Shown here: piece by piece, positions 11,060 to 38,655 of the stretch | How positions within the stretch are numbered: the stretch's first letter is position 1 | How the letters are laid out: every line of letters begins with the position of its first letter | DNA from: Bifidobacterium breve | GTDB lineage: Bacteria > Actinomycetota > Actinomycetes > S36-B12 > UBA5976 | Reading direction: 5' to 3' | DNA: 64,000 nucleotides | NCBI GenBank assembly: GCA_945866135.1 | Contig: CAMBGF010000001.1 | Location: forward strand, 24,805 to 88,804 | Program-made: the position numbers and the translations under genes | Notes under the pieces: generated by a model | What the model saw: the letters and a program-made list of their open reading frames with translations, nothing else | Databases searched by the model: none | Told to the model about the DNA's origin: nothing

Positions 11060-11068
11060 TTCAGACTC

Positions 11069-15908: not shown

Positions 15909-15978
15909 TCTTATCTCCTCGCTAGGAAACGAACTATCTTGCGATAGTTCTTCAAACCAACGTTTGTTAGTTTGAAAT

Positions 15979-18989: not shown

Positions 18990-20487
18990 CTACTTTCCCT
19001 TTCGTTGGTACAAACCATTGTGATGGTGCCGGGGCTAGATTTTGCCAAATATGTTTATGTTCTAAATACTCTGCAAGTCCAGCTTCGCCAAGTTCACGGC
19101 CGTTTCCTGATTGCTTGAACCCACCCCATTCGGCTTGGGCAACATATGGGTGATAGTCATTTATCCAGATCGTGCCATGGCGCAATTGCCTGGCAACGCG
19201 CTGTGCTTTGTCAGAATCGCTTGTCCAAACTGCGCCTGCAAGACCGAAGATAGTGTCATTGCCAAGCTTGATTGCCTCGTCTTCAGTATCGAAAACTTCG
19301 ACCGTCAAAATTGGACCAAAGGATTCATCTTGCACGCAATGCATTTCAGTGGTGCAGTTATCCAGCACGGTCGGCCGGTAGAAGAAGCCGTTCTCAAACT
19401 GGGCACCTTCGGGACGCATTCCTCCTGCGCGCAAAATAGCACCTTCGGAAAGCGCATCGGCAACATAACGTTCAACTTTGTCGCGGTGAGCTGCGCTTAT
19501 CAAAGAGCCAGTCTCGGCATCGGGATCAGTTGCCCCACCAAGTCGAATTAGATCTGCGCGCCGCGCAATTTCGGTTACTACTTGCTCATGAATCTTGCGC
19601 TCTACCAGCAAGCGCGCTCCAGCAGAGCAAACTTGCCCAGAGTGCAAAAACACAGCCGTTAGCGCATTGTCGATAGCAGCATCAAGATCTGCATCAGCAA
19701 AAATAATATTTGGGTTCTTGCCACCAAGTTCTAGAGCCACTCGCTTAACAGTTTCTGCAGCATTGATCATCAAACGTTTTCCAGTTGCCAAACTGCCGGT
19801 AAAGGAAACCATGTCAACACCAGGATGAGTGCTCATTGGACCACCGGCCACTGCGCCAGATCCAAGAACTAGATTTGCCACTCCTGTTGGTAAACCAGCT
19901 TCACTAAACACATCCATCATCATTGAAGTAGTAGAAGGTGTTAACTCACTTGGCTTAATGACAAAAGTGCAACCAGCTGCAATTGCTGGCGCCATTTTCC
20001 ATGACGCCTGGAGTAGGGGATAGTTCCAGGGCGTAATCATCGCGATCACGCCTATGGGTTCGGAAGTCATGGTGCTTCGAACGTTTTGCCTTCCTGGATC
20101 AACTTCGCGGTCATGATTTTGTGGCGCAAGAGTTGAAAAATATTTGAACACTGAAATCACATCTGCAATGTCGTATTGCGCCTCAACAAGCCGCTTTGCG
20201 GTATCTTCAGATTCCGCTTTGGCGAATAACTCTTTGTCACGTTCGAGAATGTCAGCTACGCGTTCCAAGATTTTCCCGCGTTGTTCACCAGTAAATGAAC
20301 CCCAATGGCCTGAGTCAAAAGCATGACGGGCTGCATCTATGGCAGCGACAGTGTCTGAGGCGCCGGCTTCATGAAAGGTGGCCACTAAGTGAGCATCTGC
20401 TGGATGCAAAACATTTCTGATCTCACCTGAGGAACTACCCTGTCGTTTGCCATTGATGAAGAGTTCAGTCATATGTTCATAAGCCAT
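18982..20487 (-). CDS. betB: betaine-aldehyde dehydrogenase (ALDH family)
   Basis: 501 aa with ALDH motifs ELGGKNP and the catalytic Cys in [10 protein letters not shown]. Substrate is inferred from context with betA and opuA. Confidence 0.8.
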
Positions 20488-20498
20488 AGTTGAAAACC

Positions 20499-21278
20499 TT
20501 ACTCACGCCAATAATTAGGATTGCCAGAGAGTTTAGCCGCACTGGCTTTCACTATTTGGCCTAATGAATCAAAATCTTTTGGCTTTAGTCGACTCGCAGG
20601 ACCAGAGATAACCAGAGCTGCCGCAACTTCGTCATGCACATCCCGAATGGGCGCTGCAACCGCAACAAAATCAGCTTCCATTTCCTGATAAGCAACGGCG
20701 TAACCAAGTTCGCGAACCTGCGCCAATTCCTTTTCTAATGCCTCGCCAGAAGTTATGGTGTTGGGCGCTAACTTTCCCCAGGAATCGGGTCTGGCGGCTA
20801 TCCGAGATGGCTTATCAAGCCAGGCAGTGAGTACCTTGCCAGTTGCAGTGCAGTGGGTTGGCACACTTTGCCCGAGCCAACTGCGCATCGAAACCATGGA
20901 TGGTCCCATAACTTGATCAACATAAAGAACGCGATTGTTATCGAGCACTGCAATGTTTACGGTCTCGCCAACTTGTATTGCCAGGGCCCTGGTTACCGCC
21001 CGGGAACCGGAGACAACATCGAGGGAACTTGTAACTGCGCCAGCCAGGCGCACTAAACCAAGACCCAATCGGTAGCGCCCGCGATCTGAAACTTGTTCAA
21101 CTAGACCATGCGCTAAGAGCGATGACATTAACCGAGATGCTGTTGATTTATGAACAGCTAAATCGGCAGCGATTTGAGTTACGCCAGACTCACCGCGTTG
21201 GGCAAGGATTTCCAGGATGGCAATTGCCCGATCTACTGATTGAACTGAGCCAGATTCGGCTATATGCGTGTTGCCCAT
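20499..21278 (-). CDS. IclR-family transcriptional regulator (regulator 1)
   Basis: 259 aa with an N-terminal wHTH (SVDRAIAILEILA...GVTQIAADLAVHKSTASRLM) and a C-terminal IclR effector domain. Confidence 0.85.
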   Translation of the reverse strand: MGNTHIAESGSVQSVDRAIAILEILAQRGESGVTQIAADLAVHKSTASRLMSSLLAHGLVEQVSDRGRYRLGLGLVRLAGAVTSSLDVVSGSRAVTRALAIQVGETVNIAVLDNNRVLYVDQVMGPSMVSMRSWLGQSVPTHCTATGKVLTAWLDKPSRIAARPDSWGKLAPNTITSGEALEKELAQVRELGYAVAYQEMEADFVAVAAPIRDVHDEVAAALVISGPASRLKPKDFDSLGQIVKASAAKLSGNPNYWRE

Positions 21279-21307: not shown

Positions 21308-21330
21308 TTGTCTTGAAAATAGCGAATTAG

Positions 21331-22998
21331 TTAGAACAGTCCGACTACTTCGCCGTTTACTAGCTTGATCGAGTTTGCGGCTGGAACCCTTGGCAATCCC
21401 GGCATTGTCATAATGTCTCCAGTCACAACAACTATGAACTCGGCGCCAGCGCTGAGACGGATTTCCCGAATCGTGATGGTGTGACCGGAAGGCGCCCCCT
21501 TGGCAGCGGGATCAGTTGAGAAAGAATATTGCGTCTTAGCCATGCAAATCGGAAAGTGGCCGTAGCCAGCATCTTCAAATACCTGGAACTGATCGATAAC
21601 ACTCTTATCTGCCACTACTTCAGCTGCGTCGTAAATTTGCGTTGCGATAGTTCCGACTTTGTCCCAAAGTGACATTGCATCTGGATAAAGCGGCTTAAAG
21701 GCAGCACTGCCACTTTCCACAAGTTCAACAACTTTCTGAGCCAGAACTTTGGTGCCCTTACTACCTTCAGCCCAGTGTGTGCAGCGAATTGCATCTACGC
21801 CCATATCTGCGCAGTACTTTTGCACGGCAGCAAATTCAGCATCAGTATCTGTCGTGAAGTTATTTACACCGACTACAACTGGAACGCCAAACTTTTGAAC
21901 GTTACGGATGTGACGACCCAGGTTTACAAGTCCTGCCTCAACAGCAGCGACATTCTCTTTACCTAAGTCATCCTTAGCAACTCCGCCATGCATTTTTAAC
22001 GCGCGAACTGTTGCAACAATTACTGCAGCTGACGGTTCAAGTCCAGCTTTACGACATTTAATGTCGAAGAACTTTTCAGCGCCAAGGTCAGCGCCGAATC
22101 CAGCTTCAGTTACTACATATTCACCGAGCTTCAAAGCTGTGTGGGTAGCAAGCACGGTATTGCAACCGTGAGCGATGTTTGCAAATGGTCCACCATGAAC
22201 AAATGCTGGATTGTTCTCAAGAGTCTGAACCAAGTTCGGCATCAGAGCATCTTTAAGTAGTACTGTCATGGCGCCATTTGCATTTAGTTGAGCGGCGGTA
22301 ATCGCAACTTTGTCACGCGTGTAACCAACAACGATGTTTCCAAGTCGGCGCTCCAGGTCGTCCAAGTCCATAGCAAGACACAAAATGGCCATAACTTCAC
22401 TCGCAACTGTAATGTCAAAGCCGGCTTCCCGCGGGTAACCATTGCCTGGGCCTCCGAGAGCAGCAGTAATCTCGCGAAGTGCACGATCATTCATATCTAT
22501 TACGCGTTTCCAAGCAATTCGGCGCACATCAATACCAAGTTCGTTACCCCAATAGATGTGGTTATCCAACATGGCAGAAAGTAAGTTATGGGCAGCGCCA
22601 ATCGCGTGGAAGTCGCCAGTGAAGTGCAAGTTGATATCTTCCATTGGCACTACCTGAGCGAAACCGCCACCGGCCGCGCCACCCTTCATGCCAAAGCAAG
22701 GTCCAAGTGATGGCTCGCGCAAACAAACAATTGCCTTTTTGCCAATTGCATTTAGCCCATCGCCCAGACCAACTGTTGTTGTGGTCTTACCTTCGCCAGC
22801 CGGGGTGGGCGTCATGGCAGTTACTAAAATTAGTTTGCCAGTTGGCCGATTTTTCAAGGATGAGATGAATTCCATGTTGATCTTGGCTTTTGTTGGACCA
22901 TAGCTCAGAACTGCATCTGCCGGAATACCGATTTTTTCTGCAACCGAAACAATTGATTCAGTTGTAGCTGCCCGAGCAATATCGATATCTGATTTCAT
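21331..22998 (-). CDS. fhs: formate-tetrahydrofolate ligase
   Basis: 555 aa with [15 protein letters not shown] and other FTHFS motifs. Its start overlaps the stop of the MttB-family gene (ATGA). Confidence 0.95.
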
Positions 22999-24434
22999 AC
23001 CAATAACTCCTTTTTACGCTTGTCTACCCACTCGTCAAGCTCTTCTTTAATGGCCGAGTCCATTTCTGGCGCAACATAGTCTTCAACCATCTTGTGCGCT
23101 ATTTTATTGGCTCTAACATCTGTTGTCTCGGATCCGATTCGCTTCCAGCGATCAAAGTTGTCTGCAGATGACAGGAACGGCCGATAGAAACAATCACGGA
23201 AACGATCCATAGTGTGAGCAGTTCCAAGAAAATGCCCACCATGTCCAGCTTCTTCGTGCGAGCCAAAGGCAAGTGATGCCTCATCAATTTCAAATGGCGT
23301 GAATTCTGCCTGCATCATCTGAAGTAATTCAACGTCCATAACAAATTTTTCATACGATGCAACTAAGCCACCTTCAAGCCAGCCAGCTGTGTGCATGACA
23401 AAGTTTGTGCCGGCAAGGAAAGTTGCATGCATTGTCATCAACGATTGGTATCCAGCTTGGGCATCCATAGTCTGCGCTGCATTCAGCGCGCCACCACCGC
23501 GAAATGGTAGTCCAAAGTGACGGGCAACTTGTCCAGTGCACAGCAGTCCCATTGCAGATTCCGGAGTACCGAACATTGGTGAGCCTGACTGCATGTCAAT
23601 GTTTGAAAGGAACGACCCAAACACTGCAGGGCAACCTGGGCGAACTAGTTGCGCAAGCGCGATGCCGCTTAAAGCTTCAGCAATTTGCTGCACCAAAGAT
23701 GCTGGAATCGTAACTGGGCTCATTGCGCCCATTAGCAAGAACGGAGTTAGCACACATGGTTGACCCGCTTCGCTGTATTCAAATAAAGAATCCAACATGC
23801 GATCATCCCAACGAAGTGGCGAGTTGCAGTTGATCAGGGAAATAATTGCAGGAGTTTTTTCGATGCTTTCACGAGACCCAAATACAATTTCGGTCATTTT
23901 GATGACATCTCTTGCGTTTGGACCAGTAACAACATTTCCCATGTATGCCTTGTCACTCAAAGTTTGTAAGGAATAGGTCATGTCAATGTGACGGGTGTCT
24001 AAATGTGCATCGTTTGGTTCAACAACAACCGCGCTTGAGACGTCTAAGTCTTCAAACATGTAGGTAAGTTTTGTAAAATTCTGAAAATCATCTAGCGTGC
24101 CATCGCGGCGCACACCCAGATCTCTAACGAATGGGGGGCCATAGACACCACCAAAAACCATATTGTCGCCACCGATGATTACGTTGTTTTTTGGATTGCG
24201 AGCTTGCAGCGTGAATTCCTTAGGGGCTTTAGCAACTTGAGCCAAGATCCACTCAGGATCAAACTTCACATTGTTGCCTTCAACTTTTTGACCCGCGGCC
24301 CGGAACATTTCCAGGGCGCGATCATGCATAAACTCGATTCCCATTTCGGAAACAATTCGGCGCCATCCCTTATCGAGGACAGCCATCGCATCCTGCGAAA
24401 GGATTTCATAACGTGGGCTCTTATTTTGGAACAT
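22995..24434 (-). CDS. MttB-superfamily (non-pyrrolysine) quaternary-amine:corrinoid methyltransferase, probably glycine-betaine specific
   Basis: 479-aa uninterrupted ORF with no in-frame TAG. Length and sequence look like the trimethylamine methyltransferase family. AGGAG RBS upstream. Substrate is inferred from context only. Confidence 0.8.
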
Positions 24435-24530
24435 TTCTGGCTCCTGCTGTGCGCGCTATCAGTTTTGATAACAAGTTGAAAAGATTCACCAAATGGACTT
24501 GACGAATACCGCACACAATACCGTACTATG

Positions 24531-24546
24531 TGGAACATAGGTTCCA
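24531..24546. promoter_or_regulatory. perfect palindrome in the divergent mttB-like / iclR-2 intergenic region (candidate IclR operator)
   Basis: TGGAAC-atag-GTTCCA. A further CTGGAA half-site sits at 24578-24583. The region is a 197-bp divergent promoter region. Confidence 0.35.
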
Positions 24547-24631
24547 GATTGTGAAACTTCCTTGAAGTCCTTGCAACCTGGAATTAGTACAAATTTAGCC
24601 CAAGTTTATAAAGCATATAGAAGGAGGCGAG

Positions 24632-25411
24632 ATGAGCGAGAAGTTTGCCTTAGATATGCAAGAAAAGCCGGTAACTGGAACGCAATCTATTGATCGCGCC
24701 TGCGACCTGCTAATTCGAGTTATTAACTCCGAAGATCCTGTGACATTGAGCGAGCTAGTCTCCACAACTGGCTTAGCTAAGGGAACTACCTCGCGAATCC
24801 TCAGCGCCCTTGAGCGCAGTGGTTTACTAGCCCGAAGTGTGATTGGCGGATTTGAATCAGGACCAGTGCTTAATCAATACGCAGTTCGCGGCGGCGCCTA
24901 CACAGCTTTGATCGGTTCCCTTACGCCAGCAATGGAGCGCATTGCCGACATAACGCACGAAACGGTCAGCTTGGCTGTAACTGGACACACTGGAATCGAC
25001 AATATTGCTCAGGTCGAGGGTTCATATCTATTAGGAAGCCGCAACTGGGTAGGCGAGAGTGTGCCATCTCATTGTTCAGCTGCCGGGAAAGTCCTAATTG
25101 CTTTTGGCGGCGCATCTGCGCCGAGCACATTGGCGCCACGAACCACTGAAACCATTACTGACTTTGCAACTTTGGATGCCCACATTCGAAAAGCGCGAGA
25201 AGTTGGCTACGCCGTAATTCGAAATGAACTTGAGCAAGGCTTGATATCAGTTGCGATTCCAGTTCTTGACGCCTCCAACAAGGCAATCGCGGCTTTGTCA
25301 GTTAGCGGACCTGCTGAGAGAATTACCCCAGGCGATGAATTACACATTGCACAACTTATGCGTAGAGAACTTAACCAAGTACAAGGCTTAAAACAAGAAG
25401 GAGCAGCATGA
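24632..25411 (+). CDS. IclR-family transcriptional regulator (regulator 2)
   Basis: 259 aa with a wHTH (SIDRACDLLIRV...LSELVSTTGLAKGTTSRIL) and an IclR effector domain. GAAGGAGG RBS upstream. It is ATGA-coupled to the corrinoid protein gene. Confidence 0.85.
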   Translation: MSEKFALDMQEKPVTGTQSIDRACDLLIRVINSEDPVTLSELVSTTGLAKGTTSRILSALERSGLLARSVIGGFESGPVLNQYAVRGGAYTALIGSLTPAMERIADITHETVSLAVTGHTGIDNIAQVEGSYLLGSRNWVGESVPSHCSAAGKVLIAFGGASAPSTLAPRTTETITDFATLDAHIRKAREVGYAVIRNELEQGLISVAIPVLDASNKAIAALSVSGPAERITPGDELHIAQLMRRELNQVQGLKQEGAA

Positions 25412-26064
25412 CTCACGATGAAATCCTGAAGGAAATGTATGAGCGCACTATGGAAGGCAATGCACCACGTGTGCTTGAGCTAACTCACATGGGCTTGGAC
25501 TCAGGACTAACACCGGACTCAATTCTTTTTGATGCTTTAATTCCTTCCCTCGAAGAAGTTGGTGCGCGCTTTGAGCGTGGCGACTATTTCGTACCTGAAA
25601 TGTTGATTGCAGGTCGCGCAATGAGTGGCGCTTTAGATGTGCTTCGCCCACTATTGGCGGATACCGGCGCCGAAACCGTCGGCACATTCCTTATGGGAAC
25701 TGTTAAGGGAGATGTTCACGACATCGGTAAGAATTTAGTTAACATCATGCTGGAAGGCGCTGGCTTTCAAGTTATTGATATCGGCGTTCAGTGCGCACCT
25801 GAAAAATTTATTGATGCAATCAAGGAACATCAACCAGATGTTGTTGGCATGTCAGCATTTCTAACCACCACGATGCCAATGTTTAAAGTCAACATCCATG
25901 AAATTACCAAAGCGGGTATGCGCGATGACGTAATAATCATGGTTGGCGGTGCACCGGTGACTCAAGAATATGCCGATGTGGTGGGGGCGGATGGTTACGC
26001 TTCTGATGCCTCGATGGCTGTCCGTAAGGCCAAGGAATTAATTGCAATTAAGCGTGGCAAGTAG
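25408..26064 (+). CDS. corrinoid (cobalamin-binding) methyl-carrier protein
   Basis: 218 aa with an N-terminal helical B12 cap domain and a Rossmann B12 domain carrying the DxHxxG ligand motif (GDVHDIGKNLV). Confidence 0.9.
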   Translation: MTHDEILKEMYERTMEGNAPRVLELTHMGLDSGLTPDSILFDALIPSLEEVGARFERGDYFVPEMLIAGRAMSGALDVLRPLLADTGAETVGTFLMGTVKGDVHDIGKNLVNIMLEGAGFQVIDIGVQCAPEKFIDAIKEHQPDVVGMSAFLTTTMPMFKVNIHEITKAGMRDDVIIMVGGAPVTQEYADVVGADGYASDASMAVRKAKELIAIKRGK

Positions 26065-26072
26065 CAAAATTC

Positions 26073-26468
26073 ATGACGACTTTTATTGCAACTATTGAAC
26101 ACGTAGTCAAAGGCCCGGTTTGGGGCTGCCAAGATTGTGGTCAATGCGTGCTGCACTCAACTGGAATGACTTGTCCAATGAACTGCCCGAAGACATTGCG
26201 CAATGGCCCTTGTGGTGGTGTGCGAGAAAATGGTCATTGCGAAGTAAATCCAGAAATGAAATGTGTTTGGCTTAAGGCTTATGACCGCACGCAAGGTTGG
26301 CCATTGCCCTTAGCTTGGAAAGAGGAATACAACCATTTACGTCCACCGGTTGATAATCGACTAAAGGGAACCTCGTCGTGGAAAAACTTTTTCACTAAGC
26401 GGGATCGCTGGACGCCAGCTGGTTGGAAGAACACCACGGATGAATCAATCGAAGTGGGTCACAACTGA
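26073..26468 (+). CDS. metV: MetV-like Cys-rich small subunit (methylene-H4F reductase C-terminal-domain protein)
   Basis: 131 aa with the Cys-rich stretch CQDCGQCVLHSTGMTCPMNCPKTLRNGPCGG. Its stop overlaps the metF start. Confidence 0.7.
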   Translation: MTTFIATIEHVVKGPVWGCQDCGQCVLHSTGMTCPMNCPKTLRNGPCGGVRENGHCEVNPEMKCVWLKAYDRTQGWPLPLAWKEEYNHLRPPVDNRLKGTSSWKNFFTKRDRWTPAGWKNTTDESIEVGHN

Positions 26469-27409
26469 TGTCAACACTTGAGCATAAATTAACTAAAACT
26501 ACCGAAACTGTATTCACTGCTGAATTTCACTCACTTGATGGAAATGGTCTAGAAAAGGCAAAGAAGTATGCCGACCGATTAAGCGGTTGGTTTGATGGCG
26601 TAAATGCCACGGATAACACGGCAGCACATGCACATGTTTCTAACGTTGCTACTGCCATAGCCATGAAACAACTTGGTCTGGAACCAATTTTGCAAGTAGT
26701 TTGCCGTGACAAGAATCGCTTAGCTCAACAAGCGGACATCATGGGCGCAAGCATGTTTGGCGTTGAAAACTTCTTGGCGCTAACTGGTGACGATGTAACG
26801 GCTGGAGATGAAACAGAAGCTCGTCGGGTATTTGATTTAGACGGACCACAGCTAGTGCGCTTAATGAGCACAATTAAGCGTGGTGAATACATGTCGGGCC
26901 GCAAAATTGATCCTGCGCCGCACATGTTCATTGGCGCTGTTGAAAATCCTGGCGCGCCGCCATTTGAATATCGCGTTCAACGGGTTGCCAAGAAATATGC
27001 CTCAGGTGCTAAGTTTCTACAACTTCAAATTTGCTACCATCAAGATCGCTTAGAAAAGTTCTGTGCTGGTGTTCGCGATGCAGGTTTAGCTGGCAAGATC
27101 GCGATAATTCCAACCATTGTTTTGATCAAAGGTGCCAGGCCATTGAATTTCATGCACAATAACGTGGCAGGAATTGATGTTCCGGCGGATCAGATTGCGC
27201 GCGTTGAAAAAGCAGCGGATCCGGCAGAAGAAGCATATTTACAAACTTTAGAATTTGCCCAACATGCTTTGGCTCAGCCAGCTGTGCGGGGTCTGCACAT
27301 AACAGACTTCAGAAATGATGAGACACTTGAACGACTAATGACAGACCTTGGCAGAGTTCGCCAATCAATTACAAGCGAAGTAAAGGACAACCATGCATAC
27401 AGTGCTTAG
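26468..27409 (+). CDS. metF: methylenetetrahydrofolate reductase (acetogen-type MetF)
   Basis: 313-aa MTHFR TIM-barrel-like sequence (VNATDNTAAHAHVS..., ALTGDD...), paired with metV. Confidence 0.8.
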   Translation: MSTLEHKLTKTTETVFTAEFHSLDGNGLEKAKKYADRLSGWFDGVNATDNTAAHAHVSNVATAIAMKQLGLEPILQVVCRDKNRLAQQADIMGASMFGVENFLALTGDDVTAGDETEARRVFDLDGPQLVRLMSTIKRGEYMSGRKIDPAPHMFIGAVENPGAPPFEYRVQRVAKKYASGAKFLQLQICYHQDRLEKFCAGVRDAGLAGKIAIIPTIVLIKGARPLNFMHNNVAGIDVPADQIARVEKAADPAEEAYLQTLEFAQHALAQPAVRGLHITDFRNDETLERLMTDLGRVRQSITSEVKDNHAYSA

Positions 27410-28247
27410 TAGCCCAACCAAGACGGTAACAATCGGTCATGATGTTCCGTTTGTAATTATTGGTGAGCGCCTAAACCCCACTGGACGCAAACTTTTCCAA
27501 GAAAAACTTCGTGCCAATGATCTTTCAACTATCAACATTGACGTAGCTGACCAAGTTGCTGGTGGCTGCGACATGCTCGATGTGAACATGGGCGTTCCAC
27601 TAACAGATGAACCAGCACTATTGGCGAACGCGATCAAACTCGTCCAGTCACTAACTGACTTACCGATTTGCATTGATTCATCGGTCATCGAAGCGCTGGA
27701 AGCAGGACTTGCCGTCTATGAAGGCAAAGCCCTAGTTAACTCAATGACTGGTGAAGATGAGCGAATGGATTTGATACTTCCGTTAGTTAAGAAATATGAC
27801 GCGGCGATTCTTGCTCTTCCTAATGATGAAATTGAAATTCCTATGCTGGCAAAAGACCGCATGGTAATTGTTGAAAAGATTGTGCGTCGGGTTGAAAAAG
27901 AAGGCATCTCGCTAGAGAACTTGCTAATTGATCCACTTGCCATGCCAGTTGGCGCAGATCCAGAAAATGCAAAGCACACACTCGAGACCATTTACTTAAT
28001 TAAAGAAAAGTATGGTCTTAACATGTCACTCGGTGCCTCAAATGTTTCCTTTGGCTTACCAAACCGGCATGCCCTAAATGGTGCTTTTATGCCGATGGCA
28101 ATGGCGATGGGTTTAACATCGGCAATTATGGATGGTCGCACTCCTGAAGTTGTACAAGCAGTGCGCGCTTCGGACCTAGTTTTGGGACTAGATCAATGGG
28201 GCGCTAATTGGATTAGTAACTTCCGAGCAAACAAAGAAGCGCAATAA
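27393..28247 (+). CDS. methyl-H4F:corrinoid methyltransferase (pterin-binding, DHPS-like)
   Basis: 284 aa with FVIIGERLNPTGRK and DMLDVNMGVP, resembling AcsE, MtgA and the MetH pterin-binding module. Confidence 0.8.
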   Translation: MHTVLSSPTKTVTIGHDVPFVIIGERLNPTGRKLFQEKLRANDLSTINIDVADQVAGGCDMLDVNMGVPLTDEPALLANAIKLVQSLTDLPICIDSSVIEALEAGLAVYEGKALVNSMTGEDERMDLILPLVKKYDAAILALPNDEIEIPMLAKDRMVIVEKIVRRVEKEGISLENLLIDPLAMPVGADPENAKHTLETIYLIKEKYGLNMSLGASNVSFGLPNRHALNGAFMPMAMAMGLTSAIMDGRTPEVVQAVRASDLVLGLDQWGANWISNFRANKEAQ

Positions 28248-28276
28248 CCGATAAGAATTAGCTGAAAGTAAAACCA

Positions 28277-30145
28277 GTGCCAGAAAACGAAAGCTCCTCG
28301 CCGCAGACGACAGTCAGTGGACTTGGTCGCGTCCAATTGCAGTTCAGTCCAAGTGGAACTGATGTTCGTGTGCCCCCTGGAGTAACTGTTTTTGACGCAG
28401 CTTCGTGGAATGGTTTAGCAATTGACTCCACATGTGGTGGCCATGGAACTTGCAAAAAATGCAAGATTCAAATTCTTGAAGGCGAAGTTCCGGTTTCTCG
28501 ACTAGACATCCGAGCCTTTAGTTCAGAACAGCTTGCAGATGGCTGGCGCTTGGCATGTGTTGCTCGCGCAAACGGAAATCTAAAAGTTGAAGTCCCGCCG
28601 CTATCCACGCGGCCAAAAGCTGCAACGGTGGGAGTAGGTCGACAGGTTATTTTGCGTCCTGCTGTGCAAAAACGATATGTCGAACTTGTTGAGCCAACTT
28701 TGCACGATCAACGTCCTGACATTGATCGACTGCGAGATGCCATGGATGATTTAGAGTTCCAAGCTGATTTATCAGTTCTAAAAACCCTGCCAACTATCTT
28801 GCGCAAAAATGATTTTAAAGTTACTGCAGTAGTCGTAGATGAGGCGCTGATTGCAGTGGAGCCAGGTGATACTTCGGCGCAGAACTACGCAATTGCCTTT
28901 GATCTTGGGACCACCACTGTCGTAGCGACTTTGCTTGATCTAATGACAGGCACTCCGCTGGCAGTTAAGTCAATGCTTAACAAGCAACAGCCATTTGGTG
29001 CCGACGTAATTTCGCGAATTTCTGCAACGATGATGGATCCACTGGCTGCTGGTCTAATGCAAAGCGCTGGACTAGCCACACTTAATGAACTTATTGCTGA
29101 AGTATGCACTGAAGCGGGCATCTCAAAAGATCAGGTTTACGAAACAGCGATTGCTGGTAACGCGACTATGGTCGAAATTTTGCTTGGCGTAGATCCAGAA
29201 CCTGTAGGCGTTGCGCCGTTTATCACTGCGGCGCAAAAGTGGCCAGTGTTTACTGCTGCTGAAGTGGGAATTGAAATACTTCCTTCCGCTCGCGTCTTTC
29301 TATTCCCAGCATTCGGTGCCTACGTTGGTGGTGACATTGTTGCGGGCGTGCTTGCTACTGGTATGGATCGCGACAAGCGAGTGCGCTTACTTATTGACGT
29401 AGGCACTAACTGCGAGATCGTGCTATCAAACGGCGACACGATTTTAACAACGGCTGCCCCAGCGGGACCAGCTTTTGAAGCCGCTTCAATTGCCTGTGGC
29501 ATGCGCGCTGCCGATGGCGCCATAGAAGTAGTGCAAGTAACTGATGAAGGTATCAAACTTGGGGTGATTGGCGATACGGAACCAGTTGGAATTTGCGGAT
29601 CAGGTCTAGTAGATGCGGTTTACGTACTTCATAAAGCAAAACTGATCGATGATTCTGGCCGCTTTGTAACTGATGAGTTAGCTCTTGAAATTGCCCCACA
29701 CTTAGCTTCGCGATTGCTCACTCGAGAAGCAGGGGATCGAATTTTTGTATTGCACTGGGACGGCGAGGAACCAACGGTTTACCTATCGCAGCGAGATGTT
29801 CGTGAACTGCAATTTGCAAAAGCTTCGATTGCAACGGGGTGGCGCCTGCTACTTGAAGAAGTTGGCTTAGTTGATGAGGATGTGCAGCAGGTGCTGCTCG
29901 CTGGATCTTTTGGATCGTATCTGTCGCCAGCATCGGCCATTGGCATCGGATTGGTTCCAAAACTTCCAGTTATGCGTATCGTCAGTGCTGGAAACGTTGC
30001 CGGCGAAGGCGCGAAGATGGTTTTGTTGTCGAGCACAGAACGAAGCGGCGCAACTACTTTGTTGGATGAAGTTGACTATGTTGAACTTTCTGATCGACCA
30101 GATTTCAACGACAAGTTTTTCTTGGAGTTGGCGCTTCCATCATGA
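28277..30145 (+). CDS. RACo-type ATP-dependent reductive activator of corrinoid proteins (2Fe-2S ferredoxin domain fused to an ASKHA domain)
   Basis: 622 aa with an N-terminal plant-type ferredoxin motif (CGGHGTCKKCK...C) and an ASKHA body (AFDLGTTTV, DVGTNCEIV). GTG start with a weak RBS. Confidence 0.75.
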   Translation: MPENESSSPQTTVSGLGRVQLQFSPSGTDVRVPPGVTVFDAASWNGLAIDSTCGGHGTCKKCKIQILEGEVPVSRLDIRAFSSEQLADGWRLACVARANGNLKVEVPPLSTRPKAATVGVGRQVILRPAVQKRYVELVEPTLHDQRPDIDRLRDAMDDLEFQADLSVLKTLPTILRKNDFKVTAVVVDEALIAVEPGDTSAQNYAIAFDLGTTTVVATLLDLMTGTPLAVKSMLNKQQPFGADVISRISATMMDPLAAGLMQSAGLATLNELIAEVCTEAGISKDQVYETAIAGNATMVEILLGVDPEPVGVAPFITAAQKWPVFTAAEVGIEILPSARVFLFPAFGAYVGGDIVAGVLATGMDRDKRVRLLIDVGTNCEIVLSNGDTILTTAAPAGPAFEAASIACGMRAADGAIEVVQVTDEGIKLGVIGDTEPVGICGSGLVDAVYVLHKAKLIDDSGRFVTDELALEIAPHLASRLLTREAGDRIFVLHWDGEEPTVYLSQRDVRELQFAKASIATGWRLLLEEVGLVDEDVQQVLLAGSFGSYLSPASAIGIGLVPKLPVMRIVSAGNVAGEGAKMVLLSSTERSGATTLLDEVDYVELSDRPDFNDKFFLELALPS

Positions 30146-30735
30146 GCATCGCAGTGATTGCATGTGGAGCACTTGCTGCCCACGTTCATGAAATAGCAGA
30201 TCGTCGAAATTTGGACTTGCATGTTGAGCCGGTCAATCCGTTACTCCACAACCGCCCTGAAGGAATTGCGCCAGAAGTTGAAAAACTAATTCTGGAATTA
30301 CAACCAATACATGATCAAGTTGCTATTGCCTACGCAGACTGTGGAACTTACGGTGCGATAGATCAACTTTGTGACAAGTACCAAGTCTCGCGCTTGTCTG
30401 GAGATCATTGCTATGACGTGTTTGCCACTGCGGAAAAAATGAAAGCTGAATTCGAAGCTGAGCCAGGTACTTATGTATTCACGGACTACCTAGTAAAGAC
30501 TTTCAGGCGCAGCGTCATGGTGGAAATGGGACTGGAAAAATACCCAGAACTTCGGGATGACTACTTTCACTCCTACAAGCGAGTGCTTTGGCTATCACAG
30601 CGCCAAACCCCTGAATTAGAGGCTGCCGCCCAAGATGCAGCGCAACTAATCGGCCTGCCACTTGAAATTATGCATGTTGGAGATGCACACTTAGAAGAGC
30701 AGCTCCTTGCTTTGATTGGATCAAAAGTTGAGTAA
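30142..30735 (+). CDS. DUF1638-like protein of unknown function
   Basis: 197 aa. The pattern VIACGALAAHV..., YADCGTYGAID, GDHCYDVF resembles DUF1638 proteins. It is coupled to RACo upstream and overlaps fdsG downstream. Confidence 0.55.
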   Translation: MSIAVIACGALAAHVHEIADRRNLDLHVEPVNPLLHNRPEGIAPEVEKLILELQPIHDQVAIAYADCGTYGAIDQLCDKYQVSRLSGDHCYDVFATAEKMKAEFEAEPGTYVFTDYLVKTFRRSVMVEMGLEKYPELRDDYFHSYKRVLWLSQRQTPELEAAAQDAAQLIGLPLEIMHVGDAHLEEQLLALIGSKVE

Positions 30736-31189
30736 TTATTCCGAGGAAAGCATTCTGAATTACTTGGGACCTTACAAAGGCGAGGCGTCAGCGATTTTAC
30801 GTTCTTTGCAGTTGGTGCAAGAACTTTTGGGTTACGTGCCAGATAGCGCCATTGATTTAGTCGCTAAAAATTCCAATGTTTCGCGCGCCGAAGTTTATGG
30901 CGTATTTACCTTCTACAGTGATTTCCGCTCAACACCTCCTGCCCAAGTTGTCGTTAAAGTGTGTGTCGCTGAGGCTTGCCAAGCATCTGGAAATGCCGAA
31001 TTGATTTCACAATTACACGGCCAGGGCTATGACATTCACAGTGGAAAAATTAAAGATGATATTCAAATGGAACAAACTTTCTGCTTAGGAAATTGCGCAC
31101 TTGGCCCAGCTGCCATGGTTAACGGTAAGCCGATTGGACGCGCAACTAGCGCGAGTATTTTGAAGACCGCTGTGGAACTTATTTCGTGA
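30716..31189 (+). CDS. fdsG: NAD-dependent formate dehydrogenase gamma subunit (NuoE-like 2Fe-2S)
   Basis: 157 aa with the NuoE-type Cys pattern (CVAEACQASG ... CLGNCALGPA). The track uses a TTG start, so the exact start is uncertain. Confidence 0.8.
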   Translation: MDQKLSNYSEESILNYLGPYKGEASAILRSLQLVQELLGYVPDSAIDLVAKNSNVSRAEVYGVFTFYSDFRSTPPAQVVVKVCVAEACQASGNAELISQLHGQGYDIHSGKIKDDIQMEQTFCLGNCALGPAAMVNGKPIGRATSASILKTAVELIS

Positions 31190-32733
31190 TTAAAGTATTT
31201 GTTCCTTTGGATTCTGCTGCCTTATCAATGGGCGCAGACGAAGTGGCCATTGCAATTGTGCAAAGCGCCGCAAGCCAAGGCAAAGACATTACTTTGATCC
31301 GCACAGGATCCAGAGGAATGCTTTGGTTGGAACCATTAGTTGAGGTTGAAACTTCAGCTGGCCGCATTGGTTTCGCCAACATAAGCACCGAGGCAGTCCC
31401 TGAGTTAATCAAAAGTGGAGCGCTAGACACTGGATCCCATAAATCAAGTATTGGATTAGTCGAAGAACATGATTTCTTTAAGAATCAAAACCGAGTAACT
31501 TTCGCCCGCGTTGGAGTAATTGATCCACTTTCGATTTCAGATTACGAAAATCATGGCGGTCTTGTAGGACTGCGCAAGGCGCTGGAAATGTCTGCCGCTG
31601 AAGTAGTTTCACAAGTTACTGAATCCGGACTGCGTGGTCGTGGCGGCGCAGGATTCCCAGCTGGCATTAAATGGCAAACGGTACTTAACACGCAGTCAGA
31701 TCAAAAATACATTTGTTGCAATGCCGATGAAGGTGACAGTGGGACATTCGCAGACAGAATGCTGATGGAAGGTGATCCATTTACTCTGATTGAAGGAATG
31801 ATCATCTCTGGAATTGCAGTCGGTGCAACGCAAGGTCTGATTTATGTGCGCTCGGAATATCCTCATGCAATTGACATCTTGAATCGTGCGATTGCGATGG
31901 CAAACGAATATGGCTTACTTGGTTCAAACGTCTTGGGATCGAAATCTGCTTTTGCTCTTGAGGTTAGAGTTGGCGCAGGCAGTTACGTGTGTGGTGAAGA
32001 GACCGCAATGCTGGAAAGTCTGGAAGGCAAACGTGGCATGGTTCGTGCTAAGCCTCCGATCCCAGCGCTGGTTGGATTGTTTGGGAAACCAACAGTAATA
32101 AATAACGTGATGACTTTGTCTGCGGTTCCAATGATTTTGGCGCAAGGTGCTGCTGCGTATCAGGCACTAGGACATGAGCGCTCCCGCGGTACGCAAGTAT
32201 TTCAACTCGCTGGAAACATAAAACGAGGTGGCGTAGTTGAAGTTGCTTTCGGAATCACTCTAGGTGAACTCGTAGATATCTACGGCGGTGGAACTAACAG
32301 TGGTAAGCCTGTTAAGACTGTGCAAATTGGTGGACCACTTGGGGCTTACTTAGGTACTGAATCTTGGGATGTTGCGATGGCTTATGAATCCCTTGCCCAA
32401 GCTGGTGGCATGCTGGGCCACGGCGGCATTGTGGTTTTTGACGATACGGCAAACATGGCAAAGCAAGCAAGGTTTGCTATGGAATTTTGCGCGGAAGAAT
32501 CGTGTGGCAAATGCACTCCTTGTCGTATCGGGTCAACTCGTGGAGTTGAAGTTATTGATCGAATTGTTGCGGGCGAAGATCAAGAAAAAAACCTCGAATT
32601 ACTTGAGGATCTGTGTGAAGTCATGACTGACGGTTCGCTTTGTGCAATGGGTGGACTCACTCCAATGCCAGTTCGCAGTGCACTCAAGTTATTTCCAGCT
32701 GATTTCGGGATCAAGACAGGAGCAAAGTTATGA
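31186..32733 (+). CDS. fdsB: NAD-dependent formate dehydrogenase beta subunit (NuoF-like, FMN/NAD/4Fe-4S)
   Basis: 515 aa with GRGGAGFPAGIKW and CGKCTPCR. GTG start overlapping the fdsG stop. Confidence 0.9.
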   Translation: MIKVFVPLDSAALSMGADEVAIAIVQSAASQGKDITLIRTGSRGMLWLEPLVEVETSAGRIGFANISTEAVPELIKSGALDTGSHKSSIGLVEEHDFFKNQNRVTFARVGVIDPLSISDYENHGGLVGLRKALEMSAAEVVSQVTESGLRGRGGAGFPAGIKWQTVLNTQSDQKYICCNADEGDSGTFADRMLMEGDPFTLIEGMIISGIAVGATQGLIYVRSEYPHAIDILNRAIAMANEYGLLGSNVLGSKSAFALEVRVGAGSYVCGEETAMLESLEGKRGMVRAKPPIPALVGLFGKPTVINNVMTLSAVPMILAQGAAAYQALGHERSRGTQVFQLAGNIKRGGVVEVAFGITLGELVDIYGGGTNSGKPVKTVQIGGPLGAYLGTESWDVAMAYESLAQAGGMLGHGGIVVFDDTANMAKQARFAMEFCAEESCGKCTPCRIGSTRGVEVIDRIVAGEDQEKNLELLEDLCEVMTDGSLCAMGGLTPMPVRSALKLFPADFGIKTGAKL

Positions 32734-35576
32734 CAGTAGTTTCAGATCCACGCGGCACTATGCCAATGCGATCAGGAATTGGTGAAGCTGATTATGGAAC
32801 ACCCAAATCGGATTCAGATGTTCTGGTAAACGTCACTATTGATGGCCAGTCCCATTTAGTTCCGCTTGGAACGTCAATCATGCGAGCAGCCGGGGAAGCT
32901 GGTTGTGACATTCCAAAGCTTTGCGCCACTGATTCATTGCAACCATTTGGATCCTGCCGAATGTGCCTTGTCGAAATTGATGGTCGAAAAGGAACTCCAG
33001 CTTCCTGCACCACACCTGTCGAAGAAGGAATGGTAGTTCGCACTCAGACTGCAAAAGTTGCAAAACTTCGTAAAGGCATGATGGAGCTTTACATTTCAGA
33101 TCACCCGCTCGATTGCCTCACTTGCTCAGCAAATGGCGATTGCGAACTCCAGGATATGGCTGGGGTATCAGGACTTCGCGAAGTTCGTTACGGCATAGGC
33201 AAAAATCATCTTGATGCACCAACGGATTCCTCGAATCCTTATTTCTCATTTGATGAGAGTAAATGCATTGTCTGTAATCGCTGCGTTCGCGCGTGCGACG
33301 AAGTACAAGGCACTCTTGCCCTAACTATTGAAGGACGTGGCTTTAATTCAAAGGTAAGTCCAGGTGGCTTGAACTTTTTATCTAGTGAATGTGTATCTTG
33401 TGGAGCTTGTGTGCAAGCTTGTCCGACTGCAACATTGCAAGAAAAATCTGTAATTGATTTAGGTATGCCAACTAGGACTGTTGAAACTACTTGTGCCTAC
33501 TGTGGCGTCGGTTGCTCATTCAATGCTGAGCTACGCGGTGATGAATTGATTCGAATGGTTCCAACAAAAACCGGTGGAGCTAATGAAGGTCACAGTTGCG
33601 TAAAAGGTCGATTTGCTTGGGGATACGCCTCACACAGTGACCGCGTAACCACACCAATGATGCGCGAGAAAATTACCGATGAATGGCGCGTAGTTTCTTG
33701 GGATGAAGCGATCCAATTCACAGCCACAAAGTTCAAGGCAATTCAAGAAAAATATGGTGACAATAGCATCGGCGGTATTTCGTCATCACGTTGTACTAAT
33801 GAGGAAATTTTCGTTGTCCAGAAAATGGTTCGTGCTGCTTTTGGCAATAACAACATTGATACTTGTGCGCGCGTGTGCCACTCACCAACGGGCTATGGCT
33901 TAAGTACCACGTTTGGCACCTCAGCTGGCACTCAAGACTTTAAATCAGTTGCTCACTCAGATGTGATCGTTGTGATTGGAGCAAATCCAACTGATGCGCA
34001 TCCAGTATTTGCTTCGCGCATGAAGCGACGAATTCGGGCTGGGGCGAAGTTAATTGTGATTGATCCGCGCAAGATTGATCTCGTGGAATCTGCTCACATC
34101 AAAGCTGATTTCCACTTACCACTACAGCCCGGAACTAATGTGGCAGTAATCAACGCAATTGCACATGTAATTGCAACTGAAGGTTTAATTGATGAAGAAT
34201 TCGTAGCGCAGCGCTGCGATCCAGGTCAGTTCAAGCGCTGGCGCGCATTTATTGAACTTCCCGAAAACAGCCCAGAAGTAGTTTCCGCGCAATCTGGAGT
34301 TCCGGCGCAATTGATTCGCGAAGCTGCTCGGATGTATGCCGCTGGTAATAACGCAGCAATTTATTACGGTCTGGGCGTCACTGAGCATTCCCAGGGTTCA
34401 ACCATGGTTATGGGTATGGCCAACTTAGCCATGGCAACTGGAAACATTGGGCGCGAAGGAGTTGGCATCATTCCATTGCGCGGCCAAAACAATGTGCAAG
34501 GCGCTTGCGATATGGGTTCTTTCCCGCACGAACTTTCGGGTTATCGACATGTTTCTGACAATGCAGTCCGTGAACAATTCGAAATGTTGTGGGACGTAAA
34601 GCTGTTACCAGATCCTGGAATGCGCATCCCAAATATGTTTGACAACGCTATTTCCGGAGAATTCCGCGGCGTATTTGTGCATGGCGAAGATATTGCGCAA
34701 TCGGATCCAAACGTTAAACATGTTCACCGGGCTCTTGAATCGATGGATCTTGTCGTCGTGCAAGATTTATTCCTGAACGAAACCTCAAAGTTTGCGCATG
34801 TTTTCTTGCCAGGAACTTCCTTCTTAGAAAAAGATGGCACCTTTACTAACGCTGAGCGTCGTATTAATCGAGTCCGTCCAGTTATGGCGGCTCGCAACGG
34901 TAAGCAAGAGTGGCAGATTGTTTGTGAAATCGCGCAAGCCATGGGTTATGACATGCACTACGACAATGCTGCACAGATTATGGATGAGATTGCGCAAATC
35001 ACTCCAACTTTTAAGGGCGTGAGTTTTGCCATGCTTGACCAGGTTGGTAGCGTGCAATGGCCATGCAATGACGCCGCTCCAACTGGCACACCAATTATGC
35101 ACATTGATAATTTCGTTCGTGGCCAAGGTCAGTTCATGGAAACGCCTTTTGTTCCTACCGAAGAACGTTCAAATCGTAAGTTCCCACTTTTACTTACTAC
35201 TGGTCGAATCTTGAGCCAGTACAACGTAGGCGCGCAAACTCGTCGTACTAAGAACACCACATGGCACACGCAAGATTTACTCGAGATTCATGAGGCGGAC
35301 GCAGCTATGCGAGGGATCGTGGATGGGCAGAAAATCGCAATCACAAGTCGCATTGGCGAAACGATTTTGACTGCTCATGTTACCCAGCGAGTCCCAGCAG
35401 GTGTGGTTCACACAACTTTTCACCACCCGCAAAGTGGTGCAAATGTTATTACGACAGAATTCTCGGATTGGGCAACCAATTGTCCTGAGTATAAAGTGAC
35501 GGCTGTTGAAATTCGTCCCGCAGAATCTAGTGCGCCTGCAACCAATACCCTCGATGAAGTGCTGACAAAGGTCTAG
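32730..35576 (+). CDS. fdsA: NAD-dependent formate dehydrogenase alpha subunit (bis-MGD, Cys-type)
   Basis: 948 aa with an N-terminal NuoG-like 2Fe-2S and 4Fe-4S Cys clusters, then a molybdopterin domain whose active site reads ARVCHSPTGYG. The residue is Cys and there is no in-frame TGA. Confidence 0.92.
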   Translation: MTVVSDPRGTMPMRSGIGEADYGTPKSDSDVLVNVTIDGQSHLVPLGTSIMRAAGEAGCDIPKLCATDSLQPFGSCRMCLVEIDGRKGTPASCTTPVEEGMVVRTQTAKVAKLRKGMMELYISDHPLDCLTCSANGDCELQDMAGVSGLREVRYGIGKNHLDAPTDSSNPYFSFDESKCIVCNRCVRACDEVQGTLALTIEGRGFNSKVSPGGLNFLSSECVSCGACVQACPTATLQEKSVIDLGMPTRTVETTCAYCGVGCSFNAELRGDELIRMVPTKTGGANEGHSCVKGRFAWGYASHSDRVTTPMMREKITDEWRVVSWDEAIQFTATKFKAIQEKYGDNSIGGISSSRCTNEEIFVVQKMVRAAFGNNNIDTCARVCHSPTGYGLSTTFGTSAGTQDFKSVAHSDVIVVIGANPTDAHPVFASRMKRRIRAGAKLIVIDPRKIDLVESAHIKADFHLPLQPGTNVAVINAIAHVIATEGLIDEEFVAQRCDPGQFKRWRAFIELPENSPEVVSAQSGVPAQLIREAARMYAAGNNAAIYYGLGVTEHSQGSTMVMGMANLAMATGNIGREGVGIIPLRGQNNVQGACDMGSFPHELSGYRHVSDNAVREQFEMLWDVKLLPDPGMRIPNMFDNAISGEFRGVFVHGEDIAQSDPNVKHVHRALESMDLVVVQDLFLNETSKFAHVFLPGTSFLEKDGTFTNAERRINRVRPVMAARNGKQEWQIVCEIAQAMGYDMHYDNAAQIMDEIAQITPTFKGVSFAMLDQVGSVQWPCNDAAPTGTPIMHIDNFVRGQGQFMETPFVPTEERSNRKFPLLLTTGRILSQYNVGAQTRRTKNTTWHTQDLLEIHEADAAMRGIVDGQKIAITSRIGETILTAHVTQRVPAGVVHTTFHHPQSGANVITTEFSDWATNCPEYKVTAVEIRPAESSAPATNTLDEVLTKV

Positions 35577-35578
35577 TA

Positions 35579-35794
35579 ATGGATGTCACAATACTAACTC
35601 GAATGGCCGAGCAAATTGAACTTAATATTCCTGTCCATGAAGACACTTACCTAAGAATTTCAGAGCACTTAGTGAAATTCTGGACACCACAAATGCGCAC
35701 AGATTTTTATCAGCAAGTAACGAAAAACCGAAAAGATTTCAGCGCAACATTAAATAAAGTTGTTGATGAACTTCGAGCGAAAGCTAATGCTTAA
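35579..35794 (+). CDS. fdsD: formate dehydrogenase delta subunit
   Basis: 71 aa with HLVKFWTPQMR, matching the FdsD-family FW-P-M-R motif. It lies immediately after fdsA. Confidence 0.75.
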   Translation: MDVTILTRMAEQIELNIPVHEDTYLRISEHLVKFWTPQMRTDFYQQVTKNRKDFSATLNKVVDELRAKANA

Positions 35795-36969: not shown

Positions 36970-37002
36970 AATCTACCGAACCCATGCCATGCTTTAGACC
37001 TG

Positions 37003-38647: not shown

Positions 38648-38655
38648 AGGATCCC

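Follow-up and report, generated by a model that had tools for sequence, protein, structure and literature searches.

Glycine betaine (hereafter betaine) is demethylated in the aerobic marine bacterium Ruegeria pomeroyi by a cobalamin-dependent MtgBCD system, as established by knockouts and proteomics (Mausz et al., PNAS 2025, PMC12478193). Knockouts of mtgC and mtgD abolished both growth on betaine and betaine consumption, and the MtgB candidates, MetF2, a RamA-type activase, DUF1638 and cobalamin synthesis proteins were induced on betaine, choline and carnitine (PMC12478193). The R. pomeroyi mtg counterparts are scattered in the genome, unlike the cluster of Sinorhizobium meliloti, and the mtg genes of SAR116, SAR324, SUP05 and S. 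meliloti are co-located with genes for dimethylglycine (DMG) and sarcosine demethylation and for one-carbon (C1) oxidation (PMC12478193). Here we analyze a corrinoid-dependent methyltransferase module, built around a homolog of the MttB superfamily, in a 64,000-nucleotide stretch of actinobacterial DNA (contig CAMBGF010000001.1 of assembly GCA_945866135.1, positions 24,805 to 88,804; hereinafter, the window). An earlier sequence-only reading of the window had regarded the characterized MttB homologs that lack pyrrolysine (Pyl) as coming from strict anaerobes, a view superseded by the R. pomeroyi work (PMC12478193). It had also considered a hybrid corrinoid/oxidase betaine pathway to be uncharacterized, which still applies to actinobacteria in the literature that we found; the route itself was already shown in aerobic marine bacteria in 2025, and the window most likely adds another lineage to it. 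Actinomycetota contribute 5% of the Tara mtgC reads (PMC12478193), and a 2017 network-based model predicted betaine use for acI-B without a mechanism; in our literature searches, we did not come across the module in any account of Actinomycetota, Nanopelagicales or fresh water.

A corrinoid module among choline and betaine catabolic genes

Our analysis points to region 4996-38647 of the window as a self-contained choline/betaine mineralization island of an aerobic freshwater Nanopelagicales-type actinobacterium, in which the corrinoid module would convert betaine to DMG. We put the probability of this reading, which draws on sequence comparisons, at roughly 0.75. The argument starts from a gap in the pathway: every other step from choline to glycine and CO2 is encoded in the island, and the module is the only catalyst left unassigned. 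Conserved synteny, the residues of the binding site and the existence of a homologous characterized system lend further support to betaine demethylation, and thereby to the sequence-only reading, which had proposed the same step with transfer of the methyl group to tetrahydrofolate (H4F).

The proteins of the window were identified with NCBIfam and with a Pfam scan of 60 open reading frames (ORFs), for which the minimum length was 100 aa within the island and 120 aa in the rest of the window, where overlapping antisense ORFs were excepted. E-values of 1e-24 to 1e-263 exclude chance matches, and the ORF coordinates and lengths given previously agree exactly with our ORF table (Table 1). The choline dehydrogenase, DMG oxidase and heterotetrameric sarcosine oxidase (SoxBDAG) recognized earlier as neighbors of the module were all recovered. 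The DMG oxidase scores 828 bits against the Arthrobacter globiformis enzyme DMGO (PDB 1PJ5) versus 359 bits against DMG dehydrogenase, and both it and SoxBDAG contain H4F-binding GCV_T domains. Equally sustained is the claim that the cluster holds neither BHMT nor GbcAB: for the 60 ORFs, Pfam reported no Rieske (GbcA) and no S-methyltransferase (BHMT/MtgE) domain, tblastn with S. meliloti bmt produced no match in the window and one weak match among 80 actinobacterial loci, and no Rieske gene was found either in the window or in related loci, which were covered with up to 10 kb of flanking DNA.

Direct inspection confirmed that the 479-aa mttB homolog, which has no in-frame TAG over its 480 codons, overlaps with its stop codon the start of fhs as ATGA, an arrangement indicative of translational coupling. 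The products attributed to the operon divergent from it (an IclR regulator, a corrinoid protein, a MetV-like protein, MetF, a pterin-binding methyltransferase, a 622-aa RACo-type activase and a DUF1638 protein) are each backed by Pfam or NCBIfam matches. The count of seven, however, proved too low for the operon as a whole. ATGA, TGATG and GTGA overlaps join its genes, and GTGA and ATGA junctions lead on into the formate dehydrogenase genes; because these overlapping junctions run past DUF1638 into the genes for the NuoE-like protein, the NuoF-like protein and FdhA, the transcription unit comprises at least ten genes. The module is tied to C1 oxidation on both strands, since mttB is translationally coupled to fhs and the corrinoid operon to formate dehydrogenase.

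The individual components resemble those of described MtgBCD systems to different degrees. In the 218-aa corrinoid protein, which contains B12-binding domains, the motif GDVHDIGKNLV noted in the sequence-only reading occupies residues 101-111. The best NCBIfam model for this protein is MtgC_2, at 203 bits (cutoff 370); the alphaproteobacterial in-cluster corrinoid proteins score similarly on this model (212-216 bits), and the S. meliloti one is 43% identical to that of the window. The MetV-like protein shares eight conserved Cys residues with its S. meliloti and Paracoccus homologs but is devoid of their N-terminal extension of ~80 aa, and MetF is 35-36% identical to the in-cluster alphaproteobacterial MetF proteins. 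All four domains of a RACo-type activase (Fer2, RACo_linker, Raco_middle and RACo_C_ter) score above their cutoffs in the predicted activase, and Cys53, Cys59, Cys62 and Cys94 are present. Since the AcsV equivalog model is not reached (434 bits versus a cutoff of 800), the protein is of the RACo/AcsV family type rather than AcsV itself.

Taken as a set, the genes match those found in aerobic Alphaproteobacteria. Counterparts of MtgB, MtgC, MtgD, MetF2, the ASKHA activase and DUF1638 co-occur in one divergent gene pair/operon, and the same island holds DMG oxidase, SoxBDAG, FolD, Fhs and formate dehydrogenase in a window that also contains aerobic markers. An equivalent set of seven genes, likewise divergently arranged, occurs in S. 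meliloti and on plasmid p1 of Paracoccus methylovorus, with MttB divergent from the corrinoid protein, DUF1638, the MetV-like protein, MetF, the methyl-H4F:cobalamin methyltransferase and the ASKHA activase. In S. meliloti, its neighbors are bmt and an ABC transporter for betaine, and on Paracoccus p1 it adjoins a carnitine dehydrogenase; the window proteins are 31-54% identical to those of the two clusters.

In the proposed pathway, choline would be imported by the OpuAC-type ABC system and converted to betaine by BetA and BetB. The MtgB-like enzyme would move one N-methyl group of betaine to the Co(I) of the MtgC-like protein, yielding DMG and methyl-Co(III); the MtgD/MtgA-like pterin-binding methyltransferase would hand the methyl to H4F; and MetF, with its eight-Cys MetV-like partner, would oxidize methyl-H4F to methylene-H4F. 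DMG oxidase and SoxBDAG would take the second and third methyls with O2, also to methylene-H4F, and FolD, Fhs (operating toward formate and ATP) and the NAD-linked formate dehydrogenase would convert the three C1 units to CO2, giving NAD(P)H and ATP. RACo, combining a [2Fe-2S] domain with an ASKHA ATPase and probably assisted by DUF1638, would use ATP to re-reduce adventitiously oxidized Co(II), a rescue for which the need should be acute in an aerobe. Compared to the GbcAB oxygenase, the corrinoid step would spend no O2 or NAD(P)H and would retain the reducing power of the first methyl. Two IclR regulators with distinct conserved palindromes probably govern the corrinoid arm and the oxidase/transport arm. 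In this scheme, we infer that the substrate is betaine, in which direction MetF and Fhs run, what DUF1638 does and which regulator belongs to which operator.

The MttB homolog and its substrate pocket

The MttB homolog is a full-length member of the MttB superfamily (PF06253/COG5598): the profile search returned 622 bits, far above the gathering cutoff of 25, with residues 3-477 aligned to profile positions 25-499 of 500. Its best match in the PDB is 4yyc, the in-cluster MttB protein of S. meliloti (436 bits), compared to 401 bits for MtgB of Desulfitobacterium hafniense and 133 bits for MttB of Methanosarcina barkeri. The proteins of the window, S. meliloti and D. hafniense lie at roughly equal distances from each other (41-44% identity), and all three are far from the Pyl-containing MttB. 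We had considered overall identity as evidence on the substrate but dropped it after calibration against the literature.

For D. hafniense MtgB, mutagenesis and a structure with bound betaine have revealed where the substrate is held (Picking et al., JBC 2026, PMC13080624). Y97 and F356 provide cation-pi contacts, whereas the carboxylate is bound by R312 and H348 (PMC13080624); the F356L substitution raises the Km ~800-fold (PMC13080624). Residues Y97, R312 and H348 align with Y98, R312 and H348 of the window protein, and the latter three are invariant in 121 of 121 actinobacterial homologs and kept in both alphaproteobacterial in-cluster proteins. Position 352 is occupied by Trp, also invariant in the actinobacterial homologs, where the D. 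hafniense counterpart segment reads HTAGILQYFM (I352), and the W352/G356 arrangement is again common to both alphaproteobacterial in-cluster proteins. Across ~110 diverse representatives of the family, an aromatic residue at 352 was never combined with one at 356 (0 of 49), whereas 42 of the 62 representatives with a non-aromatic residue at 352 have an aromatic one at 356 (Fisher p ~1e-15, not corrected for phylogeny). Specifically, W352/G356 is found in 43 representatives, whereas the 42 with Y, F or W at 356 have an aliphatic or small residue (I, V, L, M, S, C or T) at 352. Such mutual exclusion suggests that the second aromatic wall of the quaternary-amine pocket can be built in two alternative ways. 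Inside the W/G group, the residue at position 98 varies widely; because Tyr occurs there in only ~8 of 30 W/G representatives, the full Y98/R312/H348/W352 signature is informative, and that of the window protein exactly matches the in-cluster proteins of S. meliloti (PDB 4yyc) and Paracoccus.

Several points weigh against betaine as the substrate and need to be set against this evidence. The second aromatic wall of the D. hafniense enzyme, F356, is G356 in the window protein, and it is from the covariation that we infer W352 to stand in for it. The AlphaFold2 model of the protein had a mean predicted local distance difference test score (pLDDT) of 64.9, dropping below 50 over residues 348-439, and was discarded. 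Identity to the authenticated MtgB is 41%. MtcB and MtyB are 53% identical and prefer different substrates, and two true MtgBs are 65% identical to each other, so that the substrate is not fixed by sequence identity. Furthermore, the identity of MtgB in R. pomeroyi itself rests on proteomics (PMC12478193), and the 64-kb window yielded neither a cobalamin riboswitch in an Rfam scan nor a gene for cobalamin uptake or synthesis. Given the 41% identity and the one differing D. hafniense-type pocket residue, we classify the window protein as a probable member of an aerobe-type MtgB-like clade that would work like MtgB, and not as a proven MtgB.

Some of these points also feed the most serious alternative, namely, that the MttB homolog acts on another quaternary amine (proline betaine, carnitine, gamma-butyrobetaine, choline/phosphocholine or another methylated compound) and that conversion of betaine to DMG is encoded elsewhere. 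Besides the low identity to MtgB, the precedent of MtcB and MtyB and the absence of F356, this alternative draws on the many residues found at position 98 in the W352/G356 clade, which imply several specificities, and on the nearest non-orthologous representatives (55-56% identity), which have Q or S at that position. Nevertheless, we consider it unlikely. The island makes betaine through BetA and BetB and consumes DMG through DMG oxidase, and nothing else in the window is a candidate for the step between them; MttB is encoded there only once, and betaine-pathway neighbors are kept in 37 of the 47 loci compared below; Y98, R312 and H348 are identical to those of the two in-cluster alphaproteobacterial proteins; and a carboxylate-binding Arg together with a His fits a small betaine.

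Somewhat less probable is the possibility that the corrinoid protein, pterin-binding methyltransferase, RACo and DUF1638 function mainly as a split methionine synthase like that of Phaeobacter inhibens, or in a dual role, as in R. pomeroyi, with betaine demethylation being secondary. A homocysteine-binding gene of the MtgE/BHMT type is missing from the window, and the 80 actinobacterial loci yielded just the one weak match mentioned above; the lack of MtgE near the module means that there is no sign of coupling to methionine synthesis. Moreover, the operon is catabolic in make-up, with IclR, MetV, MetF and formate dehydrogenase in one unit and mttB coupled to fhs, and it is located among genes for betaine uptake and oxidation.

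A trimethylamine:corrinoid methyltransferase system, the name that public annotation gives generically to all homologs and with which PF06253 membership is compatible, can be set aside with near certainty, since the absence of an in-frame TAG (Pyl) codon and the score of 270 bits against TIGR02369, the Pyl-MttB model (equivalog cutoff 525) and the sole NCBIfam model matched, exclude a trimethylamine enzyme, in line with the low score against M. barkeri MttB relative to MtgB and 4yyc and with the absence of trimethylamine-related genes nearby.

Even though pyrrolysine is absent from them, the named public homologs are all annotated as "trimethylamine methyltransferase (family protein)" or "trimethylamine--corrinoid protein Co-methyltransferase." Such naming of non-Pyl homologs is a systematic mis- or under-annotation, liable to inflate the methylamine or methanogenesis potential in metagenome surveys.

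Conservation, host and regulation

The closest relatives of the MttB homolog (89-99% identity) are proteins of freshwater metagenome-assembled genomes (MAGs) labeled Actinomycetota or Candidatus Nanopelagicales, followed at ~70% identity by proteins of the cultured aerobes Nocardioides, Asanoa, Nostocoides jenkinsii and Marmoricola. The window has a uniform GC content of ~48% and also encodes a mycothiol-dependent Rv2466c-like reductase, ClpP1P2/ClpX and trigger factor. The label "aerobic-type actinobacterium" chosen in the sequence-only reading is justified by these nearest genomes (Nanopelagicales/Actinomycetota MAGs) and by the mycothiol-dependent reductase, along with the oxidases for DMG and sarcosine, a copper amine oxidase and a globin. 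The copper amine oxidase (54666-56603), an arginase-family (agmatinase/ureohydrolase-like) protein (40513-41529) and a truncated bacterial globin (48085-48459) indicate further amine catabolism and an oxic lifestyle. On the other side of the island, a small plus-strand operon (482-4970) encodes a major facilitator superfamily transporter, a 795-aa protein resembling transketolase/pyruvate dehydrogenase E1 and an EamA transporter; the end of a gene for an acyl-CoA dehydrogenase adjoins it.

Synteny was analyzed in 47 actinobacterial loci for which 8 kb or more of sequence was available on either side. The MttB ortholog is accompanied by the divergent IclR gene and the corrinoid protein gene in all 47, by the pterin-binding methyltransferase in 46, DUF1638 in 45 and RACo in 44, with all four core partners present in 43. 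Genes for BetA, BetB, DMG oxidase or SoxB adjoin the module in 37 of the 47, and the syntenic loci include those of the cultured aerobes Nocardioides, Asanoa and Nostocoides jenkinsii. By contrast, MetV/MetF, Fhs and formate dehydrogenase join the cluster in the Nanopelagicales-type subset only. FdhA is linked in six loci, all of them from freshwater or groundwater. In the window, the formate dehydrogenase set (30716-38647) is complete, with genes for the NuoE-like protein, the NuoF-like protein and FdhA followed by MoeA, MobA and FdhD. The idea that the module is a horizontally acquired relic of an anaerobe was rejected in view of the uniform GC content, the intact and coupled ORFs and the 68-99% identical orthologs that are syntenic across many actinobacterial genomes.

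Two palindromes emerged as candidate operators. Box A (TGGAAC-N4-GTTCCA) occurs as an exact copy only once in the window, in the region between mttB and the divergent iclR2. With up to two mismatches, it is present within 400 bp upstream of the MttB ortholog in 61 of 77 loci, whereas ~0.02 occurrences per locus are expected by chance; across loci, the arms are kept and the spacers vary. Box B (TGTTGC-N7-GCAACA) recurs in related loci at -9 of iclR1, -86 of the DMG oxidase gene and -30 to -65 of betB, with 58 sites versus 1-2 in shuffled sequences. Many Nocardioides-type loci contain a further copy of Box B ~6 kb from MttB. This distribution suggests one IclR regulator per arm, corrinoid on the one hand and oxidase/transport on the other, with the pairing of each regulator to its operator being putative. 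A consensus scan for promoters and terminators across 20400-39400 gave fewer matches than in shuffles and was uninformative.

Table 1 Genes and candidate operators of the island (window coordinates)
Feature	Coordinates	Strand	Evidence or remark
MtgB-like non-Pyl MttB-superfamily methyltransferase	22995..24434	-	PF06253 622 bits; proposed glycine betaine:corrinoid methyltransferase, 479 aa
IclR-family regulator 2, first gene of the plus-strand operon	24632..25411	+	Pfam scan; divergent to MttB in 47/47 loci
MtgC-like corrinoid protein, 218 aa	25408..26064	+	B12-binding and B12-binding_2; DxHxxG at 102
MetV-like Cys-rich partner of MetF, 131 aa	26073..26468	+	DUF5981 (MTHFR C-terminal, MetV type)
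MetF-type methylene-H4F reductase	26468..27409	+	MTHFR domain; proposed oxidative direction (MetF2 analog)
MtgD/MtgA-like methylcorrinoid:H4F methyltransferase	27393..28247	+	Pterin_bind; PRK07535 294 bits, cutoff 259
RACo/AcsV-type ATP-dependent reductive activase of corrinoid protein, 622 aa	28277..30145	+	Fer2 and RACo linker, middle and C-terminal domains
DUF1638 protein	30142..30735	+	PF07796; proposed accessory in corrinoid reactivation
NuoE-like subunit, NAD-linked molybdenum formate dehydrogenase	30716..31189	+	2Fe-2S_thioredx
NuoF-like subunit, NAD-linked molybdenum formate dehydrogenase	31186..32733	+	Complex1_51K
FdhA, molybdopterin formate dehydrogenase alpha subunit	32730..35576	+	TIGR01591 897 bits
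MoeA, molybdenum-cofactor gene	35791..36969	-	Domain scan
MobA, molybdenum-cofactor gene	36943..37824	+	Domain scan
FdhD, formate dehydrogenase maturation gene	37817..38647	+	Domain scan
BetA, choline dehydrogenase (choline to betaine aldehyde)	4996..6642	-	GMC_oxred N and C; TIGR01810 830 bits, cutoff 732
FolD, methylene-H4F dehydrogenase/cyclohydrolase	6642..7490	-	THF_DHG_CYH and THF_DHG_CYH_C
SoxG, heterotetrameric sarcosine oxidase (whole set 7514..12310)	7514..8146	-	SoxG domain
SoxA, sarcosine oxidase subunit	8112..10784	-	GCV_T and SO_alpha_A3
SoxD, 92 aa	10781..11059	-	ATGA overlap with soxA; read from sequence, MLHIPCPYCGPRDETEF
SoxB, sarcosine oxidase subunit	11069..12310	-	DAO
DMG oxidase, H4F-dependent, O2-using	12334..14757	-	DAO, FAO_M and GCV_T
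OpuAC binding protein, betaine/choline-type ABC transporter (whole set 14940..18989)	14940..16031	-	OpuAC
Fused permease, betaine/choline-type ABC transporter	15979..17958	-	BPD_transp_1 x2
ATPase, betaine/choline-type ABC transporter	17955..18989	-	ABC_tran
BetB-like aldehyde dehydrogenase (betaine aldehyde to betaine)	18982..20487	-	Aldedh 532 bits; syntenic with MttB ortholog in 35/47 loci
IclR-family regulator 1	20499..21278	-	HTH_IclR and IclR_C
Fhs, formate-H4F ligase	21331..22998	-	FTHFS 874 bits
Box A, candidate IclR2 operator, divergent mttB/iclR2 region	24531..24546		Perfect palindrome; wider inverted repeat 24525-24552
Box B, candidate IclR1 operator, upstream of DMG oxidase operon	14786..14823		86 bp upstream of DMG oxidase gene; TGTTGC-N7-GCAACA at 14786-14804
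Box B, candidate autoregulatory operator, over iclR1 start codon	21269..21306		Could also serve as fhs terminator hairpin; TGTTGC-N7-GCAACA at 21269-21287

Implications and comparison with described systems

If confirmed, these results would extend aerobic cobalamin-dependent betaine demethylation from marine Proteobacteria to freshwater and soil Actinomycetota and explain the bridge between BetAB and DMG oxidase, a step without an assigned enzyme in the literature that we searched. In lake bacteria that are very abundant, the cycling of carbon and nitrogen would then depend in part on B12. Moreover, thousands of "trimethylamine methyltransferase" annotations, which metagenome surveys are at present prone to take for a sign of anaerobic methylamine metabolism or of methanogenesis potential, would be corrected. 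More broadly, Actinomycetota (abundant plankton of the freshwater Nanopelagicales type and the common soil genera Nocardioides, Asanoa, Marmoricola and Nostocoides) might carry a widespread dedicated MtgBCD-type betaine demethylase that is not linked to methionine synthase and is under a two-regulator, two-operator IclR regulon, with a single choline-to-CO2 island in the streamlined freshwater forms; we regard the odds of this generalization as evenly balanced. If it holds, the turnover of betaine and choline by these aerobes in lakes and soils would be vitamin B12-dependent, and an aerobe-type MtgB pocket (Y98/R312/H348/W352, with G356) would be an alternative to the Y97/R312/H348/F356 pocket of the anaerobes. 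Both the covariation in the pocket (W352/G356 versus aliphatic-352/F356) and the two conserved operator candidates are open to direct testing.

Of the described systems, the MtgBCD(E) system of aerobic Alphaproteobacteria is closest to that of the window, with the same components, the divergent MttB/corrinoid layout, the Y/R/H plus W352/G356 pocket, an aerobic host, and a methyl flow that feeds into an oxidative DMG/sarcosine route and H4F-linked C1 oxidation. The two differ in that the window system belongs to Actinomycetota from fresh water or soil and has its transporter, BetAB, DMG oxidase, SoxBDAG, FolD, Fhs and NAD-linked formate dehydrogenase genes in one ~34-kb island with two IclR regulators. 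It also has an Arthrobacter-type DMG oxidase, a shorter MetV and no MtgE nearby.

With MtgB/MtgC/MtgA of D. hafniense Y51 (PDB 2QNE, 9YCE) and MtgB of Methanolobus vulcani, the window system shares a non-Pyl MttB TIM-barrel and an adjacent DxHxxG corrinoid protein; the D. hafniense set further resembles it in the methylcorrinoid:H4F methyltransferase and in the retained Y97, R312 and H348. Unlike the window host, D. hafniense and M. vulcani are strict anaerobes, and the D. hafniense enzyme has I352, Y355 and F356 where the window protein has W352, G355 and G356. Whereas the methyl-H4F of D. hafniense enters the Wood-Ljungdahl pathway or respiration, and M. vulcani uses coenzyme M, that of the window host would be oxidized to CO2 beside O2-dependent oxidases.

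MtpB, MtcB, MtyB and MthB of Eubacterium limosum, which work with MtqC/MtqA, are likewise MttB-superfamily quaternary-amine:corrinoid methyltransferases, share one corrinoid protein and an H4F methyltransferase, and keep the carboxylate-binding Arg (PMC13080624), but these homologs act on proline betaine, carnitine, gamma-butyrobetaine or phosphocholine in an anaerobic acetogen and, compared here by description, reportedly do not conserve the aromatic pair. The Pyl-containing MttB/MttC of M. barkeri (PDB 7XCL) belongs to the same PF06253 family and has the same type of corrinoid partner; the window protein differs in having no Pyl codon and, as the low score given above shows, is only distantly related. 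Finally, the GbcAB Rieske monooxygenase of Pseudomonas and the BHMT of SAR11 and mammals perform the same net step from betaine to DMG with unrelated enzymes, compared to which the corrinoid route would keep the methyl group as methyl-H4F, with no use of O2 or homocysteine.

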